DNA of 27,789 bases, taken from IMG/VR virus record IMGVR_UViG_3300042901_000537, positions 1-27,789 of that record. One strand, 5' to 3'. Under the pieces are notes generated by a model that had not been told where the DNA came from, made no database searches, and saw nothing but the letters and a program-made list of their open reading frames with translations. The position numbers were made by a program, and so were the translations under genes. Positions within the stretch are counted from its first letter, which is position 1, and every line of letters starts with the position of its first letter. The stretch is from a virus. Lineage: Duplodnaviria > Caudoviricetes. This document shows, piece after piece, positions 1-9,930 of the stretch.

Positions 1-2030
1 GTATCAAACACTCTTGTTATATCGCTGAATGCAGAAGTTGCTGCTTCAATCATATCACCCACAGTTGGAGCAGCTGCATCTAATGTGCCCATTGTTGGCA
101 TTTTTAAATTAGGTGCTGCAGCTGGTGTTGAAGAAGGTGCTGATGCACTGGCTACAACAGGATTAGGTGATGAAGTGCCTGCTGATGATGCTAAAGAAAT
201 ATCACCAGCGTAAGAATTAACTTTACTTAATAATGATGCACCATAACCACTATTTAAGTTTAAATTGCTTCCGCCAATTGATTGAGTCACGGCTCGATTA
301 GCTTCTTCTTGTGTATTAAAAGATTTTCGTAAATTGGCATCTTTAATATACCTTGCTGCAATTCTAGCCGCAACAACTGGATCATTAGCTAAATCAGGGT
401 TGTCAACTAAAGGTAGATTTAAAGCTTTACCCATAGACGCATAGTTATTCTTACCTGTCAACTGAATAAACCCTCTTCCTCGATATTTAAACCCATCACC
501 AGGTTCCGTATTACCCATTTTTCCACCATAGACCAATTCAGCTAAACCTTGTGGATTATTCGTATATTGTTTAAGTTGTTCGTCAGATAAATTTTTCGTT
601 CTTGTTGGAAATACTTCTTTTAATCTTGCTGTTGACGTATAGTTTAAATTTTCACTAGCTGGTTTAAATCCCGATTCTTTTTTAATATTTGCTAATAATG
701 CAATTTGAGTTTTTTCATCAGTTATTCCCTCTTGAGCAAAAGCAGCCATTAAATCTGATTGTATTCCTCCTGGTTTTGGATACATTCCAAAAGCTGCGCC
801 GCCAGAACCAGTTGTTATAGGTGTTGTTGAGGATCTTGTTGGTGATGTTGTAGGAGACTGAGGCGCTGGTGTAGGAGCAGGCGTTGATGCCACTGGTGTT
901 TCAGTTTGCGTTTCACCATTTGGTTTGCTACTGCTAAATCTTCTCATCTCAGCTGCATCAATACTTCCATCAGCCTGGCTTTTTAATGCACCAGCATGTT
1001 GTATATCTTGTTGTTCTTTAACAACACGAGATTCTTTAATTTCGATAGCTCTTTTACCTGATGCTTCAGCCTCAGCAATTTTAGCTCGCAACTCATCTTT
1101 AGTTCTTATTTCACCTGAGGTAAAGTCGGATAGCTCTTCATCGGTTCTATCATCTTTTAGATAGGATTTCAACTCATCATTTATTAAAAAAGTTCTTCTT
1201 GCAGATTTTGAGGCTTGACTACCTCTGTCTTGAGCTATACGCAACTTTTGTTTTTCTTGTGTATTTGCTTCTGAGTTCTTTTTATCAAGTAAATCCATTA
1301 ACCATTTTGCAGATACTAATGCAGCTGCAATTCCCAAAAATACTGGATTTGTTAATATTGGTAATAGTGTGCGAAGTGCGCCACCCAAACCTTTCATAAT
1401 ATCTAAACCAACACCAAATATTTTTCCCAAGTTTTCTGTTGAAAATATGGTTCCTAATACTCCAGTTATAGCTGCTGCAATCGTTGTTCCCATACCCATT
1501 ATTGAACCTAAAATTCCTTTATCTTCTTTTTTAGGCGCTTGTTGTGTAGGTGAAGTGGAGGGTTTTGTTTTTTCTTTACGAAATTGAGTTTCGTAAGAGG
1601 CTTCATTCTCACTAGCCTTCTTGAAGAACATGTCAGCACCTTCTCTTGGAGTGCCACCTTGTAGTTTAACCAATTTGCCAATATTTTGCCTCATCACATT
1701 CATATCTCTGGCCATACTCGGTAGAGACATAGAATTTTTAGCAGAAATTGTAGAGCTAATTTTCACATCTCTAAATTCTGAAATTAAACCATCAACATTT
1801 CCTAAAGAAGAACTCTGTGTAGTTGAAAGTTCTTTCACTTTGTCAGCTGGGGTTGCTTTGTAAGCTTTAAATACTGAAGGCAGGGCCGCAGCTAACAAGC
1901 CCTTTTGGTCAAACATTTGCCTTGGATCAATTTTTTCCAAAGCTCTTTTACCAAAAGTTGATGCTAGGCCTCCGCCTTTTGCCTTTTCAGATTTATAGAT
2001 TTCTGCTAATCTACTTGTTTTATCTGCCAT
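1..2030 (-). CDS. Tape-measure/gp29-position tail protein with a GH19 (chitinase/lysozyme-like) domain; 3' end runs off the window
   Basis: Not in the ORF track. Manual translation from ATG at 2030 gives MADKTSRLAEIYKSEKAKGGG..., open to base 1 (>676 aa). Hydrophobic segments at about 1300-1520 (GILGSIMGMGTTIAAAITGVLGTIF; PVFLGIAAALVSAKWLM), a Pro/Thr/Ser linker at about 800-920, and GH19 motifs KESGFKPASENLNY and GDGFKYRGRGFIQLTGKNNY (about 441-500). The tape-measure call rests on position after tube initiator/gp26/gp51. Confidence 0.8.
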   Translation of the reverse strand, partial: MADKTSRLAEIYKSEKAKGGGLASTFGKRALEKIDPRQMFDQKGLLAAALPSVFKAYKATPADKVKELSTTQSSSLGNVDGLISEFRDVKISSTISAKNSMSLPSMARDMNVMRQNIGKLVKLQGGTPREGADMFFKKASENEASYETQFRKEKTKPSTSPTQQAPKKEDKGILGSIMGMGTTIAAAITGVLGTIFSTENLGKIFGVGLDIMKGLGGALRTLLPILTNPVFLGIAAALVSAKWLMDLLDKKNSEANTQEKQKLRIAQDRGSQASKSARRTFLINDELKSYLKDDRTDEELSDFTSGEIRTKDELRAKIAEAEASGKRAIEIKESRVVKEQQDIQHAGALKSQADGSIDAAEMRRFSSSKPNGETQTETPVASTPAPTPAPQSPTTSPTRSSTTPITTGSGGAAFGMYPKPGGIQSDLMAAFAQEGITDEKTQIALLANIKKESGFKPASENLNYTSTARLKEVFPTRTKNLSDEQLKQYTNNPQGLAELVYGGKMGNTEPGDGFKYRGRGFIQLTGKNNYASMGKALNLPLVDNPDLANDPVVAARIAARYIKDANLRKSFNTQEEANRAVTQSIGGSNLNLNSGYGASLLSKVNSYAGDISLASSAGTSSPNPVVASASAPSSTPAAAPNLKMPTMGTLDAAAPTVGDMIEAATSAFSDITRVFD

Positions 2031-2217
2031 TTGCAACCCTTTGTTGTTCTAATCTTTGTTTTTCTTCTTCAAGGTGCTTCATTAACATATCGATATAAAT
2101 TTGTCTTTCCCAAGGTATCATATTATCCAATTCAGTCAAACTATATTTGTGATACTGCATCAATGCAAAATTAGTTTGATAATAGTTTAATAAACTATCA
2201 TGGGAAAGACTTATACG
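2020..2217 (-). CDS. gp51-like baseplate hub assembly domain, probably expressed as a -1 frameshift extension of the gp26-like gene
   Basis: Open frame RISLSHDSLLNYYQTNFALMQYHKYSLTELDNMIPWERQIYIDMLMKHLEEEKQRLEQQRVANGR*, a motif set typical of small 'gp51' ORFs in aquatic T4-likes. The first in-frame TTG/ATG is at 2163/2160 (46 aa from the ATG), after the recognisable SH..L.NYY.TNFAL segment. The stop overlaps the start region of the next gene. Confidence 0.8.
   Translation of the reverse strand, partial: RISLSHDSLLNYYQTNFALMQYHKYSLTELDNMIPWERQIYIDMLMKHLEEEKQRLEQQRVANGR
2103..2210 (-). promoter_or_regulatory. Nested inverted repeats; candidate frameshift-stimulatory RNA structure
   Basis: Perfect 10-bp pair gtctttccca (2103-2112) / tgggaaagac (2201-2210). 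Inner pairs tcaaacta (2136-2143) / tagtttga (2172-2179) and atagttt (2182-2188) / aaactat (2192-2198). Confidence 0.6.
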
Positions 2218-2936
2218 AAAAAATTTTGAATTCCTTCTAATACAATATCTTCTTCATATTTACATTTTGCACATTTAAATTCTAATTTCTTTTCAAATTT
2301 TGGCATTGTATTAAAGAATTTTTGAATTTTTTCTAAATCATCTTGTTGCATACTATCAATAAAGTCCATTAATTCTTCTCTTGTAGCATCTTTTGAATAG
2401 TAAATTTGGTTATCATCATAAATGTAATCTATACATTTAACAATTAGTTCCATTATTCCATCAAGGTCGTTTAGATTTTTAACATTAACATCATTGACCA
2501 TTTGAAATGTTGGATACTTCATTACTAATCCAAGTTTGTCAGTAATAACAATCTTGTTTGAATGCTCTTCACTCATTTTTGGTTGCAATTCTAATATGTT
2601 CAAATCAAATTTTACAACCGAATTGCAAGGTTTATCATCTACTGTATTGTTGCAATTGTATCTCAAATTTACAACCTCACCTACAGACCTAGCTCTTAGT
2701 TGAATGAATAGATGTTCAAGGTCAAAAGTTGGTAACTCATCAATGTCCACCTTACTTAATAGGCAATTGTTTAGAATTTGTTTAATGATATCGACCGACT
2801 CTTTAATTTCACCCGATTCGGAAGCCATTAAAAATAGTTTTTGTTCTTTCACAAGAAACGGTCTAAATTTTACTATTTTGCCTGTTGAAATTAGTTTAGT
2901 CTCATAAATCGGCACATCAATTTTTGGTAAAGCCAT
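2211..2936 (-). CDS. gp26: T4 gp26-like baseplate hub assembly protein (putative tail assembly chaperone)
   Basis: MALPKIDVPIYE...VKFRPFLVKEQK, FDLEHLFIQLRARSVGE, MKYPT, C-terminal CxxC (KCAKC) and LEGIQNFF end. GAGGA Shine-Dalgarno upstream. Confidence 0.88.
   Translation of the reverse strand: MALPKIDVPIYETKLISTGKIVKFRPFLVKEQKLFLMASESGEIKESVDIIKQILNNCLLSKVDIDELPTFDLEHLFIQLRARSVGEVVNLRYNCNNTVDDKPCNSVVKFDLNILELQPKMSEEHSNKIVITDKLGLVMKYPTFQMVNDVNVKNLNDLDGIMELIVKCIDYIYDDNQIYYSKDATREELMDFIDSMQQDDLEKIQKFFNTMPKFEKKLEFKCAKCKYEEDIVLEGIQNFFV
2217..2226 (-). promoter_or_regulatory. Overlapping -1 ribosomal slippery heptamers (A AAT TTT and T TTT TTC)
   Basis: Minus strand reads CAA AAT TTT TTC GTA TAA. 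Both heptamers fit X XXY YYZ in the gp26 frame, and a -1 slip enters the gp51-like frame at CGT ATA AGT CTT TCC CAT. Confidence 0.75.
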
Positions 2937-2951
2937 ATTATATCCTCACGT

Positions 2952-3746
2952 TTAAAAAATAACTCTGGTTGCTGGTGTAATTAGTCTCTCTGAAATACTA
3001 GTACCAGCTTTGTCGAAGAATCTGGATGCTTTGTCTCCAAATAGTTGAGCTGCAGCAGCTGCAATATCATATTGACCTTGATAGACCACACGATACTTTT
3101 GATAAGCAAATTGAATCGTTAGCCTATGAAATCCTTCTTCAGACCAAGATAAAGGTTGCGATACAATTGAAATTGGAAAAGCATCAATCATTTCAATTGC
3201 ATATATTTGTTTGATGAAATCATCATACTGAATAACTTTAATGTTAGTCATGTAGCGAGTGTCTTCACCTTTTGGAAAACGCAAGTTATTGGTATCAGAT
3301 GGCATAATTGCTTCGATCCAACGGTCAAATAACTTACGCTCATAAAATTCATTTGTACACAAGAATGTTAGTGTTGTAGTTCCATCTTGGTATTGTGTTT
3401 GATATGGAACTTTAAATATTGGTCCATAAATTTTAACATCAGCAGTCACTAAAGATTTACCAGGCAATTCAGCACTCTCGCATTGTAGTGCCAAATATCT
3501 TGAAATGGCAGCATTACTGCTTTTGCCTTGAGCATCAGCTGGCTCACTTCCTAAGATTTGATTGATAGCATCAGAAACATCAGTTACAATTGTATTTGGT
3601 AAATTAATTAGTTTTTCTAATGTGGATGTTTTTATAAATTTAGCAATGTATTCTGGAATAGGAAGAATAACCTCAAATCGGTTATTTTTAGCTAGACCAT
3701 CTTTAGTTTTAATATTAGATAAAAATGATTGTGGTGTGAAAGCCAT
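2952..3746 (-). CDS. gp54-like baseplate tail-tube initiator (tail tube fold)
   Basis: GLAKNNRFEV, LQCESAELPGKSL, YGPIFKVPY, ERKLFDRW and DAFPISI...LSW...LTIQFAY are tube-family motifs. Context is consistent. Confidence 0.75.
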   Translation of the reverse strand: MAFTPQSFLSNIKTKDGLAKNNRFEVILPIPEYIAKFIKTSTLEKLINLPNTIVTDVSDAINQILGSEPADAQGKSSNAAISRYLALQCESAELPGKSLVTADVKIYGPIFKVPYQTQYQDGTTTLTFLCTNEFYERKLFDRWIEAIMPSDTNNLRFPKGEDTRYMTNIKVIQYDDFIKQIYAIEMIDAFPISIVSQPLSWSEEGFHRLTIQFAYQKYRVVYQGQYDIAAAAAQLFGDKASRFFDKAGTSISERLITPATRVIF

Positions 3747-4336: not shown

Positions 4337-4783
4337 TCAAAGACCAAGTTCTTTTTCTGTGATAACTTTAAACTGCCACCCATGTTCTCTACAGAATAAA
4401 TCGGCTGCTCTCCACTTCTCCTGATTGATAGCATAAGTAGCAGCTTCTTGAATGAATCTTTGAGTCTTACGTTTCTGTACAGGCATCCTAGTTTGAGCAT
4501 CTGGTTTGACCTCAAGTACCATAGTTTTTTCTGATCCACCCTTTTGTTTAACTTTGGCAACAAAATCAGGAAAGTACCTGTGCATTCTATTGTCCACAGG
4601 TGATTTGTAGGGTATTACCAGTTCCTCTGAAGCCCACCAAATGACATTTGGATTGTCATCAAAGTATTTCATCACTCTGAGTTCCCAACTGGAACGATAT
4701 ATGATGTTGTTTGCATTACCTTTATACTTGCTTGGATTTTTGGGTTTAAAGGTGCCTTTGTAGGTTTTGTTTAGGGTATTCAT
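4337..4783 (-). CDS. gp4: T4 gp4-like head completion nuclease (TnsA-like PD-(D/E)xK fold)
   Basis: YKGTFKPKNPSKYKG, IIYRSSWE, WASEE, HRYFPDF, EVKP, NQEKWRAA and FKVITEKEL motifs. Confidence 0.92.
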   Translation of the reverse strand: MNTLNKTYKGTFKPKNPSKYKGNANNIIYRSSWELRVMKYFDDNPNVIWWASEELVIPYKSPVDNRMHRYFPDFVAKVKQKGGSEKTMVLEVKPDAQTRMPVQKRKTQRFIQEAATYAINQEKWRAADLFCREHGWQFKVITEKELGL

Positions 4784-4790
4784 ATAAATA
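4783..4790 (+). promoter_or_regulatory. T4 late (gp55-dependent) promoter TATAAATA for the baseplate operon
   Basis: Exact consensus at the 33-bp divergent gap, followed by AGGA SD and the ATG at 4817. Confidence 0.8.
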
Positions 4791-6667: not shown

Positions 6668-8010
6668 GTGAATATAATTTAAAACAAGCAACAGACTTTG
6701 ACATACGGGAGTTAACAATTGTTACTAACCGTGGCCCATTTGACTTGCGAGGAATGTTTCAAGAGCTAAACATCTTTGATAGCGTCTTGTCTCCATGCAT
6801 GACAGGCAATCTTTTAATTGTTGACTCATTGGGTTTATCTGAAAGCTTATTGTTGGATGGAACAGAAATTCTTTTGATTGATATTGAAAAAGGTGATGGA
6901 CTAGAACCACTAAAGAAAAGATTTAGGGTGTTTAGTCAAAAGAACCGAAATCAATATAATCAAACAAGCGAAGCTTATGTGTTAATGTTTGCATCGGAAG
7001 AATTTATTCTATCTGAGCAACAGAGAGTTAGCCAGCACTATGAAGATACCTATTCCGAAATTATGTATAGTATTCTTCAAGACTATTTGAAACCTGCAAA
7101 CGGCAAATTGGGTGGAAATTTTGATGATTCTCTTGGTTTAACAAGCGTGGTTATTCCATTTTTAAAACCATTTGACGCTATCAATTGGTGTGCTAAGCGA
7201 GCAATTGGTACAAATGATAAACCTAATTTTGTATTCTTTGAAAATTTGGATGGTTTTAATATCTGTTCTTTAGATACAATTATCGAATCTGATTCTATAA
7301 TGGAATTAGTATTCTCACCTAAGAATTTAAATTACCTATCCAATACAAGCTTTGATGAAGAATTCTTCGGTGTTAGAGCTATGCAAGTCATTACACAAAA
7401 TGATTTTGTAAAGAAAACAAGAGCTGGTGTTTTTGCAGGCAGTGTTGTTGGATTTGACCCAATTACTCGTACAGTAAAGAAAACAGTTTACAACTTTAAT
7501 GATGTTTATAATGACACATCACATTCAAATCCAAATCCAATAATATCACAAGATAAAAATAAAACAGGTAAAACAAATTATGAGATGCAAAATGCTAGAC
7601 AACTCGTATATTTGGATACTTCTTCTAGGGACACCAGTGAATATTTAAATGAAAAAGATGCTGAGTCTTTGCAAGTTAAAGATGTTCCACAAAAGTATAT
7701 TTTTCAAAGACAAGCCATTTTTCAAAACTTGTTTACACAAAGAGTTAAATTAGTCTTACCTGGAAACTTTTTGGTAACCTCAGGTAAGATGATAGATTTG
7801 AATGTTCCTCGTTATGGTGTTCATGCGGCAGATGATGATAATTTTGATATGACATTAAAAGGCACTTATATGATAGCGGCTACACGCCATATTATACGAT
7901 ACACTGGTTGCGAAACTATTATTGAAGTTGTGACAGATTCTACTGAAAGAGTGAATGTTCAACCAAATACAGCCGAAAAAGAAGAAACGATGACTTGGTA
8001 TGATAACTGA
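6664..8010 (+). CDS. Probable baseplate hub protein (gp27/VgrG-N-like)
   Basis: 448 aa between gp53 and gp5. ELNIFDSVLSPCMTG, KPFDAINW, FVFFEN..GF, and a C-terminal PGN...G.YMIAATRH pattern typical of hub proteins. Confidence 0.65.
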   Translation: MSEYNLKQATDFDIRELTIVTNRGPFDLRGMFQELNIFDSVLSPCMTGNLLIVDSLGLSESLLLDGTEILLIDIEKGDGLEPLKKRFRVFSQKNRNQYNQTSEAYVLMFASEEFILSEQQRVSQHYEDTYSEIMYSILQDYLKPANGKLGGNFDDSLGLTSVVIPFLKPFDAINWCAKRAIGTNDKPNFVFFENLDGFNICSLDTIIESDSIMELVFSPKNLNYLSNTSFDEEFFGVRAMQVITQNDFVKKTRAGVFAGSVVGFDPITRTVKKTVYNFNDVYNDTSHSNPNPIISQDKNKTGKTNYEMQNARQLVYLDTSSRDTSEYLNEKDAESLQVKDVPQKYIFQRQAIFQNLFTQRVKLVLPGNFLVTSGKMIDLNVPRYGVHAADDDNFDMTLKGTYMIAATRHIIRYTGCETIIEVVTDSTERVNVQPNTAEKEETMTWYDN

Positions 8011-9118
8011 TTACAATAATAAGCCTTTTCTTTACCATGGAAAAATTGAATCGATTGATGATCCTGCAGAGCTTCATCGTATGCAGGTTCGTGTCTTTGA
8101 ACTACATGATACAGATGTAACGAAGATACCAACAGAAACTCTTCCTTGGTTTCAACCGTTATTCTCAATAAATGCAGCTAATAGTGCTTCAGCACCAAAT
8201 GTTGGTGATTGGGTTCTAGTTTATTTTCCTGACCCCGAATCGGCACAATTTGGTTATGTCATGGGTACTTTGCCAGGAATTGTATCGGAAACTACTGAAC
8301 AAACAGTATATTCCACACAAACAAGACCAGTTAAACCAGCTGGTGATCCAGCAGGAACAGTAGGACGACCATCTACACCTCCATTATCCAGAAAAGTGGT
8401 TGCGGGCACAGGCGTGGATAGAAGCAACAAATCACTAGTCCATGTGTGTGATATTACACATGAAACTAATCGTGTAACTAATGCTATGCGTAGACAATTT
8501 AGTGAAGTGGTTGCAGCTATTAAAGAAGCAATTTCTGCCTTATTGAAAGCATTAGGTTTTGCCGACCCCTCTGGTGAAATATTAAAGTTGACAGAATTGG
8601 CCAAAGATATTGCAAGAAAGATTAAAAAAGTAACAGACTTTGTGAGAGATATTAATAGTACCATTGCAGAATATTTAAAAATCATTAGACAGATTAGAGC
8701 TATGATTGCTTATATTTTAAGTTTGCCTGGAAGACTTTTAGCTGAGTTTCAACAATGTTTGGCTAACTTGTATAAATCTTTATTATCAGGATTCACGTCA
8801 GCGTTTGCAGAAGTTGGCAGTATAGGTGATTTAGCAGAGTTAGCTGAAGCAGTTAATACAGTTACAACAGAAATTCAAGCTGCTGCAACTCAAGTGGCTA
8901 TATTAGCTAGCACACCACAACAGTTGGCTGCGGTTGTATCTACACCTTCAAGCTCTGCGGATATTGCTAGAGCTGAACAGGACTTTACAACTTATATGAC
9001 TTCAGATGGATTATTCAATTCTTTGGTTCCTTCTCCATCTTCTTTACAACCTTCCGCAGAAGCAACAGCTGTGGTTAGTTCCAATATTGTTGATTTTAGT
9101 AATGGAAAAATGGCTTAA
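8000..9118 (+). CDS. gp5 N-terminal part: OB-fold followed by a long helical region, no lysozyme domain
   Basis: GKIESIDDP..L.RMQVRVF.LH...IPTETLPW...P.VGDWVLVYF.D..AQ..VMGTLPG is the gp5 OB-fold. The remainder is an Ala/Leu/Ile-rich amphipathic helical sequence. Confidence 0.82.
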   Translation: MITDYNNKPFLYHGKIESIDDPAELHRMQVRVFELHDTDVTKIPTETLPWFQPLFSINAANSASAPNVGDWVLVYFPDPESAQFGYVMGTLPGIVSETTEQTVYSTQTRPVKPAGDPAGTVGRPSTPPLSRKVVAGTGVDRSNKSLVHVCDITHETNRVTNAMRRQFSEVVAAIKEAISALLKALGFADPSGEILKLTELAKDIARKIKKVTDFVRDINSTIAEYLKIIRQIRAMIAYILSLPGRLLAEFQQCLANLYKSLLSGFTSAFAEVGSIGDLAELAEAVNTVTTEIQAAATQVAILASTPQQLAAVVSTPSSSADIARAEQDFTTYMTSDGLFNSLVPSPSSLQPSAEATAVVSSNIVDFSNGKMA

Positions 9119-9120
9119 AC

Positions 9121-9930
9121 ATGGCAGTAGATAACGCTTATTCACCACCAGATTATAGTTGGCTTCAGAGAGAGTCTGAGGCTTCGGTGGAAAATCCACC
9201 AAATTTTCCAGATAATAATTCACAACAAACTAAATCTGGTCACATTTTTGAAATGGATGATACATTTGGTCGTGAGCGTATTCGAATTCACCATAGAACA
9301 GGCACCTTTGTTGAAATGCATTCTAATGGTGACGAGACACATAAGATAACTGGTGATGGTTATGAAATCATTGCAGGCAACAAATATGTACACATCAGTG
9401 GTTTTTGTAACATTACAATTGAAGGTGATGCAATCGTTAATGTCAAAGGTAATAAAACTGAGCTGATTGAGGGTAATTATAACCAAGTTATCAAAGGTGA
9501 TTTTATCCAAGTTGTTAAGGGTGAATCAAGAATGTTATCTGATGGAAATATGACAGTTGGTTGTGGTTCAGATTTTCTTGGTTCATTAAGACTTGTTACT
9601 GGTGACCACTTGAGATTAGAAGGTGATTTGTCTGTGAATGGTGGTATCTCAGCTACAAACATAACTAGTGATGGTTGGGTTGCTGCGGCACAAGGTGTAA
9701 ATGCGGGACCAAAAGGATTTGTTTCTTTACTTGGTGGTTTATCCGTTGGTATTCCAATTGCAGTTCCTGGTTGTGTAAATGCTTTAGTTGAAGTTAAAGC
9801 GCCGCTAGGAACTTTTGGCACAATGTCTGCTATTTTAATGACAGATATGATTAATACAAAAATATTTGATACTCACATCCATATGGCCAGAGGTCCAACC
9901 TCACCGCCAATTTCTGGACCAATGATTTAA
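9121..9930 (+). CDS. gp5 C-terminal part: beta-helical spike ending in an HxH motif
   Basis: TKSGHIFEMDDT.GRERIRIHHRTGTFVEMH, then 8-residue repeats (ITIEGDAI VNVKGNKT ELIEGNYN QVIKGDFI QVVKGESR), ending FDTHIHMARGPTSPP. Confidence 0.85.
   Translation: MAVDNAYSPPDYSWLQRESEASVENPPNFPDNNSQQTKSGHIFEMDDTFGRERIRIHHRTGTFVEMHSNGDETHKITGDGYEIIAGNKYVHISGFCNITIEGDAIVNVKGNKTELIEGNYNQVIKGDFIQVVKGESRMLSDGNMTVGCGSDFLGSLRLVTGDHLRLEGDLSVNGGISATNITSDGWVAAAQGVNAGPKGFVSLLGGLSVGIPIAVPGCVNALVEVKAPLGTFGTMSAILMTDMINTKIFDTHIHMARGPTSPPISGPMI

Follow-up and report, generated by a model that had tools for sequence, protein, structure and literature searches.

We propose that a predicted 10-bp long-range RNA stem, kept by compensatory silent changes in approximately one third of the relatives analyzed, is probably the 3′ stimulator of a −1 ribosomal frameshift in a tail assembly chaperone (TAC) gene, a proposal drawn from comparative sequence analysis. 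The window, by which we mean the whole stretch of 27,789 nucleotides, is a virus record with a T4-like tail and baseplate module, and the junction lies on its minus strand, where the message reads ...AAU UUU UUC GUA UAA GUCUUUCCCA ... UGGGAAAGAC. The 5′ arm of the outer stem, GUCUUUCCCA (2210–2201), lies in the S-L-S-H codons of the −1 frame, begins 6 nt after the heptamer U UUU UUC and is paired at 10 of 10 positions with the 3′ arm, UGGGAAAGAC (2112–2103), which lies in the W-E-R-Q codons beyond an 88-nt loop. The original prediction had described this pairing, and every motif that it named was found at its minus-strand place when the letters of the window were checked.

How stable is the predicted fold? 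Positions 2103–2210 fold at −29.2 kcal/mol (z −4.76), and none of 200 dinucleotide shuffles folded as low. The structure also held up against the codon-shuffled controls proposed for it: compared with synonymous shuffles, which keep the −1 protein and use the codon usage of the window, the predicted energy is −30.9 kcal/mol (z −4.04), with 0 of 1,000 shuffles as low. Watson-Crick pairing at all ten positions in the same register arose in 45 of 20,000 synonymous shuffles. On the other side, the amino acids themselves favor outer-stem pairing, since at least 8 of 10 pairs formed in 330 of 1,000 shuffles. The predicted pair probability of the outer stem is 0.79–1.0, and it is approximately 0.98 in contexts extending up to −150..+300; the computed cost of opening the 5′ arm is 14.9 kcal/mol. 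The stem can form only once approximately 120 nt beyond the slip site have been transcribed.

The junction and its products

What does the junction encode? The gp26-like gene at 2211–2936 (minus strand, as are the other features of the junction) would give the short TAC form (TAC-N; 241 aa; PHROG150, E 1e-70; PF12322, E 2e-63). At its end lie the slippery heptamer (2217–2223), which is conserved across junctions, and the 6-nt spacer GUAUAA (2211–2216), which includes the 0-frame stop UAA (2213–2211). The −1 frame (2020–2223) encodes a gp51-like C-terminal domain (TAC-C; PHROG634, E 4e-28; PHROG150 positions 230–281) that aligns with the end of Aes012 gp51 (E 3e-11) and would contribute 65 aa to a 305-aa long form; its first in-frame start is at 2163/2160, with none earlier. 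In T4 (L081:3803–5229) and Aes012 (L082:1762–3165), gp26 is a short form and gp51 an in-frame long form, the two being divergent genes; T4 gp26 covers PHROG150 positions 14–235 and gp51 positions 13–280 of 282. At the level of sequence, this confirms that T4-type phages carry the short form and the fused long form as two genes.

The AlphaFold model of TAC-N has a pLDDT of 91.5, and its best three matches among 48,161 chains were 3fgx (Z 7.6), 2ob9 (Z 7.2) and YqbN 3klu (Z 7.2), with rank 5 at Z 4.0. Residues 1–90 superimpose on the HK97 tail assembly chaperone 2ob9 with a moderate score (Z 7.2, rmsd 4.4, 84 aligned); 3fgx and 3klu we take to be TACs as well. The structural matches cover residues 1–95 only, the second domain having no clear solved match, and the model thus suggests, at moderate Z, that the N-terminal residues of the short product have a TAC fold. 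A search of PDB sequences with the TAC-N profile gave 0 matches at E ≤ 1, and an NCBIfam search gave no useful match.

A tail-tube-family gene lies upstream (2952–3746; PHROG45, E 5e-32; gp54-like by position in annotated relatives), and a large downstream gene (3–2030; 676+ aa) is cut by the window end. The latter has profile matches only to endolysin/GH19 families (PHROG181, E 2e-49; PF00182, E 7e-7) and is a candidate tape-measure-type protein with a GH19/lysozyme-like domain, the gene being long and the tape-measure role being suggested by position only; in Cr30 the gene annotated as tape measure comes after one small ORF. The junction is not an assembly error, since a contig of run X9 covers 1900–2940 without a gap and with 2 differing letters. 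All four sequencing runs have G, not A, at window position 2036, in the tail of the −1 frame. Rfam covariance models gave two unrelated matches in window 1500–3500 (E 3.7 and 4.7, far below gathering). Between 1800 and 4900, a sigma-70 promoter scan found 17 promoter-like sites against 12.7 ± 4.5 in shuffles, and a terminator scan found none near the junction. The motifs TATAAATA / ATAAATA at 4783–4790 (+) and 4335–4329 (−), presumably T4 late-promoter-like, precede the rightward baseplate genes and the leftward run that contains the chaperone junction. Finally, we note two adjacent ORFs (8000–9118 and 9121–9930) that resemble what we take to be two halves of a gp5-type spike gene.

The slippery site was compared across a sample of 334 loci and the window, of which 325 matched the −1 peptide, 315 were gap-free (7 gapped junctions, 2 at an edge and 1 short junction were dropped) and 255 were unique; junctions under 90% identity gave 150 representatives. 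The run of six U is present in 255 of 255 unique junctions and in 80 of 80 further loci, and the heptamer is UUUUUUC in 208 of the unique junctions, UUUUUUU in 45 and UUUUUUA in 2. In 150 of 150 representatives a U precedes the Phe codons and the first of these codons is UUU, against a baseline of 75%, and the −1 frame is shut at most 17 codons upstream in 251 of 255 junctions. A heptamer where the first ORF ends, followed by a −1 frame that is open and conserved, is the arrangement to be expected of a tail-chaperone frameshift. Among cultured phages the U run is present in 20 of 22; Ag3 (L088:3265–3444) and D509 (L094:1842–1872) have no XXXYYY heptamer before the stop and an AUG that overlaps it, so coupling or a different shift is possible there. 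In Mosig (L084:2200–2232) and 15 of 255 junctions the 0-frame stop comes seven codons later; in such late-stop junctions both reading frames run through the 5′ arm, and the stem keeps its perfect pairing. One junction (L013) has an in-frame 21-nt deletion that takes SLTELDN out of the −1 domain, either a variant or an assembly slip.

A second putative signal lies on the other side of the heptamer. Across the relatives the anti-Shine-Dalgarno (anti-SD) profile peaks at an element approximately 10 nt upstream of the slip site. Of 90 relatives, 60 use GAG for the Glu codon 14–12 nt before the heptamer (baseline 25%), and the Leu codon before that Glu ends in G in 47 of 99 (baseline 26%); the codon counts given for this element are not tree-corrected. 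Other Glu-Gly pairs have GAG in 17 of 67 cases, and in the held-out set described below the Glu codon before the heptamer is GAG in 20 of 26. At 2232–2238 of the window and at the same place in relatives, the silent positions before an invariant Gly codon are biased to (G)GAGG. We propose that this SD-like element likely aids slipping in many relatives. The window carries a weak version of the family-wide element, AAGGA (2232–2236), as its putative 5′ stimulator, with an anti-SD value of −4.8 against a null mean of −4.4 kcal/mol.

Covariation of the outer stem

Is the pairing itself selected? The outer stem is on average the top helix; it is formed by 52 of the 150 relatives and not by the other 98. 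The 5′ arm is missing in most of the window's nearest gp26 relatives, and in 44 of 151 sequences the 5′ segment has no well-paired partner, the slippery site still being kept. Because the outer stem is not universal, covariation was tested in a core subset, namely the 54 of 150 relatives able to form six other, largely amino-acid-fixed pairs, a selection for which the test columns were not consulted. In this subset, ranks 1 and 2 among 7,140 column pairs belong to the two silent pairs that can vary freely: pair 2209–2104 is C-G in 37 and U-A in 12 relatives (49 of 54, versus 57% expected), and pair 2206–2107 is C-G in 23 and U-A in 21 (44 of 54, versus 46% expected). The same pairs rank 2466 and 6805 in the other 96 relatives, and 24 and 114 of 7,140 over all 150, where unsubsetted covariation is dominated by kinship. 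Fisher p values are 7e-9 for 2209–2104 and 2e-9 for 2206–2107, the next best of 820 third-position pairs reaching 6e-4 and the crossed-pair controls 0.21 and 0.38. Confounding by GC content was ruled out, GC3 being alike in both groups. Two-sided changes number 44 against 18.2 ± 5.7 in shuffles, with six never-varying pairs fixed by the selection rule, and RNAalifold run on the relatives returns the outer helix alone.

On a FastTree phylogeny of TAC-N proteins, from which the stem columns were excluded (70 rows), parsimony changes are shared in 13 of 15 cases at 2209–2104 and in 12 of 16 at 2206–2107, and the two pairs rank 1 and 2 of 2,636; strict independent-pair sign tests are borderline (approximately 5 changes the same way and 0 opposite per pair, median p 0.0625; a separate test of this type gave 0.125 and 0.031). 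The held-out set comprised 80 further metagenome loci (38 less than 90% identical to earlier ones; 16 with the core), and its core loci have Watson-Crick pairs in 16 of 16 cases at 2209–2104 and in 13 of 16 at 2206–2107. Pair 2203–2110 is broken in 16 of the 54 core relatives. Rare codons make the stem: AGG is used in 38 of 54 relatives versus 7%, and CUY for Leu in 50 of 54 versus 22%. Measured against synonymous shuffles, relatives with the core have a folding z of −3.4 and those lacking it one of −1.9, compared with approximately −0.7 in TAC-N control stretches. Among cultured phages, Pelagibacter phage Mosig and Methylophilales phage Melnitz-3 have the identical stem at 10 of 10 pairs.

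The original prediction had staked itself on conserved and covarying pairing between the SLSH and WERQ codons, and the silent pairs do co-change among the 54 core relatives, along the tree and again in the held-out set. These comparisons indicate RNA-level selection on the outer stem; it is seen where the core is present, and only there, through compensatory changes of the kind looked for in a 3′ stimulator. Covariation demonstrates the pairing, not its purpose. The accompanying suggestion that RNA pairing shapes the protein is partly supported. Residues of the 5′ arm vary widely where the stem is lacking, but P-x-E-R persists in stem-less relatives and also in T4 gp51, a protein made with no frameshift; the 3′ arm is therefore fixed mainly by the protein. 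The edge pair 2210–2103 is C-G in 32 and G-C in 8 relatives and broken in 14 of 54; it joins S/G with Q (G-C) or A with E (C-G) in 40 of 54, a link that is weak on the tree (rank 756 of 2,636).

The interior of the stem and the spacer

The loop had been predicted to hold two further stems that would complete a three-way junction. In the window the inner hairpin AUAGUUU/AAACUAU (2198–2192/2188–2182) has a predicted pair probability of 0.41–0.63, and the inner stem UCAAACUA/UAGUUUGA (2179–2172/2143–2136), which encloses the AUG at 2160, one of 0.76–0.93. The centroid fold does show a junction here; against this, the minimum-energy fold is a nested rod and the branches lack conservation. Pairing reaches 59.7%, 61.8% and 70.9% in the inner stems versus 92% in the outer stem, the tested inner pairs hold tree ranks 164–2429 of 2,636, and the UCAAACUA stem is kept in near relatives without compensatory signal. 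The AUAGUUU hairpin was rejected as a conserved part. So was a UGCA/UGCA hairpin within UGCA-UUGA-UGCA (2167–2156, with the AUG at 2160 inside), which is predicted at only 0.11–0.16 because UGAUG/UAUCA (0.55–0.81) is preferred. Some inner helices occur in many stem-bearing relatives. The 52 QTN relatives encode Ser as AGY in 48 cases and use a G-ending Leu codon in 39, the corresponding counts elsewhere being 44 and 47 of 128; on the tree the QTN-AGY link is gone (1.3 same, 0.1 opposite, 5.6 unchanged). Since the inner branches are without covariation support, a conserved three-way junction is not supported: the junction is one predicted fold of this genome and not a conserved element, and two inner branches conserved together with the closing stem, in the manner of IS911, were not found among the relatives examined. 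Blocking of the AUG at 2160 by structure is possible for the window, where this AUG is predicted to be paired (unpaired probability 0.09–0.29), but the codon is AUG in only 215 of 255 junctions, and the frame ahead of it shows the conservation of coding sequence.

The spacer gave a different result. A 3′ structure at the classic distance had been predicted, and the outer stem indeed starts at spacer 6. A helix-start scan, which used an approximate stacking table, showed that the best helix of 70 core-bearing relatives starts sharply at spacer 6 (−16.1 versus −7.4 at spacer 5); for the 118 relatives that lack the core, spacer 6 again has the greatest excess over shuffles. A stable helix is thus predicted 5–9 nt behind the heptamer, as expected of a 3′ stimulator. 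About two thirds of the relatives do not have the outer stem; in many of these a different stem begins at that spacer. The predicted partners include a local hairpin in P-SSM2, S-PRM1 and ACG-2014f, others in S-CAM3, Cr30 and SH-Ab 15599, and a long-range helix as an alternative in two Vibrio phages; all are predictions with little covariation. For example, P-SSM2 (L085:1720–1760) and 66 unique relatives have a local 11-bp hairpin 5 nt behind the heptamer that covers the annotated gp51 AUG, and one column pair of this hairpin type is U-A in 41, G-C in 4 and A-C in 20. In five junctions (L217, L219, L212, L245 and L248) PFE/PYE replaces PWE, and the 5′ arm pairs with S-L-T-E-I codons. A near freshwater group has a second long-range register that joins LGN with M[IL]P codons, with one suggestive pair (paired in 19 of 22 versus 60% expected). 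The best explanation is that the closing stem alone, and above all its start position, is selected, and that the 88-nt interior folds lineage-specifically.

Mechanism and known systems

How might the stem act? We propose that most ribosomes would read F-F-V and then stop, giving the 241-aa product. While the two Phe tRNAs occupy the U run, the stem would stand at the mRNA entry channel and resist unwinding, and a minority of ribosomes would slip back one base into the gp51-like frame, giving the 305-aa product. The SD-like element, U UUU UUC and the entry-channel helix would together form a cassette in the style of dnaX and IS911. As the majority of ribosomes would terminate at 2211, the stretch beyond it would be free to refold. 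A bolder extension, which we regard as doubtful, is that T4-like phages have a position-fixed, partner-swapping stimulator inside the shifted frame that makes the long-to-short ratio self-limiting and drives paired residue changes (S/G with Q versus A with E). Since the closing stem extends over 36 −1-frame codons, a shifting ribosome would hold it open while crossing, and the followers would not shift.

The main rival accepts that the stem is selected and holds that it guards a ribosome-poor stretch, blocking −1 re-initiation or protecting the downstream mRNA from decay or termination, with the slip rate little changed. The predicted pairing of the AUG at 2160 fits such a guard, as do the hairpin of the P-SSM2 group, which covers an AUG two bases after the stop, the retention of the slip site in relatives without the stem, and the structure of the region without the core, which still exceeds that of TAC-N (z −1.9 versus −0.7). 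However, the helix start is tied to spacer 5–6 whatever the partner, a constraint more in keeping with the entry channel than with general protection; moreover, there is no in-frame start near the 5′ arm here and none within the first 36 nt in 129 of 255 junctions, and we consider this rival unlikely. We give distinctly less credence to an IS911-like arrangement in which the entire three-way junction is the working stimulator and the inner branches are needed for strength. The centroid fold, the UCAAACUA stem (predicted at approximately 0.9), the AGY and G-ending codons of the QTN relatives and the inner helices of many stem-bearing relatives speak for it, but the inner stems are paired far less often than the outer one, RNAalifold returns only the latter, the inner pairs rank low on the tree, where the QTN-AGY link is lost, and the minimum-energy fold is a rod.

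It is very improbable that slippage of RNA polymerase on the T run produces the long form, or that coupled re-initiation yields TAC-C, with the stem irrelevant to the ribosome's frame. Ag3 and D509, with their overlapping AUG and no XXXYYY heptamer, would suit this reading, as would the runs of at least 7 T in 45 of 255 junctions, but the window has 6 T, versus the runs of 9 cited for polymerase slippage in PMC5009743, and has no start codon near the stop for coupling. The run is, in addition, always in tandem-slip phase (U and then UUU for Phe in 150 of 150). Slightest of all is the chance that the pairing is a by-product of conserved LSH and WER motifs with complementary codons and has no RNA function. 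Six of the ten pairs are largely amino-acid-fixed, shuffles often reach 8 pairs or more, and two thirds of the relatives do without the stem, all as a by-product would have it; yet silent positions co-change on the tree and in the held-out set, the crossed controls do not, and rare codons are chosen. By this silent-site covariation the by-product reading is already largely refuted.

A 3′ stimulator at this junction would matter because the shift rate sets the ratio of short to long tail chaperone, and for T4-like phages the shift itself is only predicted. The analysis provides exact, evolution-validated base pairs to test and indicates which elements of the predicted fold can be disregarded. 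It also supports re-annotating the many small 'gp51' genes, each as the −1 portion of a single gene, and it is a clear example of codon choice in a coding region being steered by RNA structure.

Finally, the junction can be compared with known systems. As citing papers report, a frameshift in T4-like TAC genes is already published (Vladimirov, Gautam, Davidson, Virology 2022;566:9, PMID 34826709); the two-gene solution of the T4 TAC forms is described in PMC10885494, and poly-T runs in the TAC-N genes of T4-like phages are named as known slip signals in PMC12846349. The window shares with this TAC-N/TAC-NC frameshift the gene family and the poly-U slip signal. The citing passages name no 3′ RNA stimulator, covariation or upstream SD, in contrast to what is proposed for the window; our literature search found no publication on the outer stem, which Vladimirov 2022 or its supplements may describe. 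In lambda gpG/gpGT and P2-type phages, according to excerpts of PMC5009743, one gene likewise gives a short and a long chaperone by a −1 shift near its end. The model suggests a TAC-like N-terminal fold for the window protein as well, although the TAC-N of the window is different and, at 241 aa, much longer. The same excerpts name no structured stimulator for lambda and give T4 as the exception. They place 3′ stimulators 5–9 nt and −1 SD elements 9–14 nt from the slip site. The E. coli dnaX gene and IS911 combine an internal SD-like element, which is weak in the window, with a heptamer and a 3′ structure 5–9 nt downstream, an arrangement that the window resembles (PMC5009743, in part). Unlike them, the window has U UUU UUC in place of A AAA AAG, and its stem closes over 88 nt of coding sequence with a 3′ partner that varies by lineage; the IS911 stimulator is a three-way junction (PMC5009743, in part), whereas the inner branches of the window are not conserved. 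Signals that reach 44–104 nt or more downstream are represented, in the same partial source, by the apical loop-internal loop contact of IS3411 and the long-range effect of T7 gene 10. The outer stem of the window is neither a loop-loop contact, as in IS3411, nor a terminator, as in T7, but a plain closing helix between two runs of codons.
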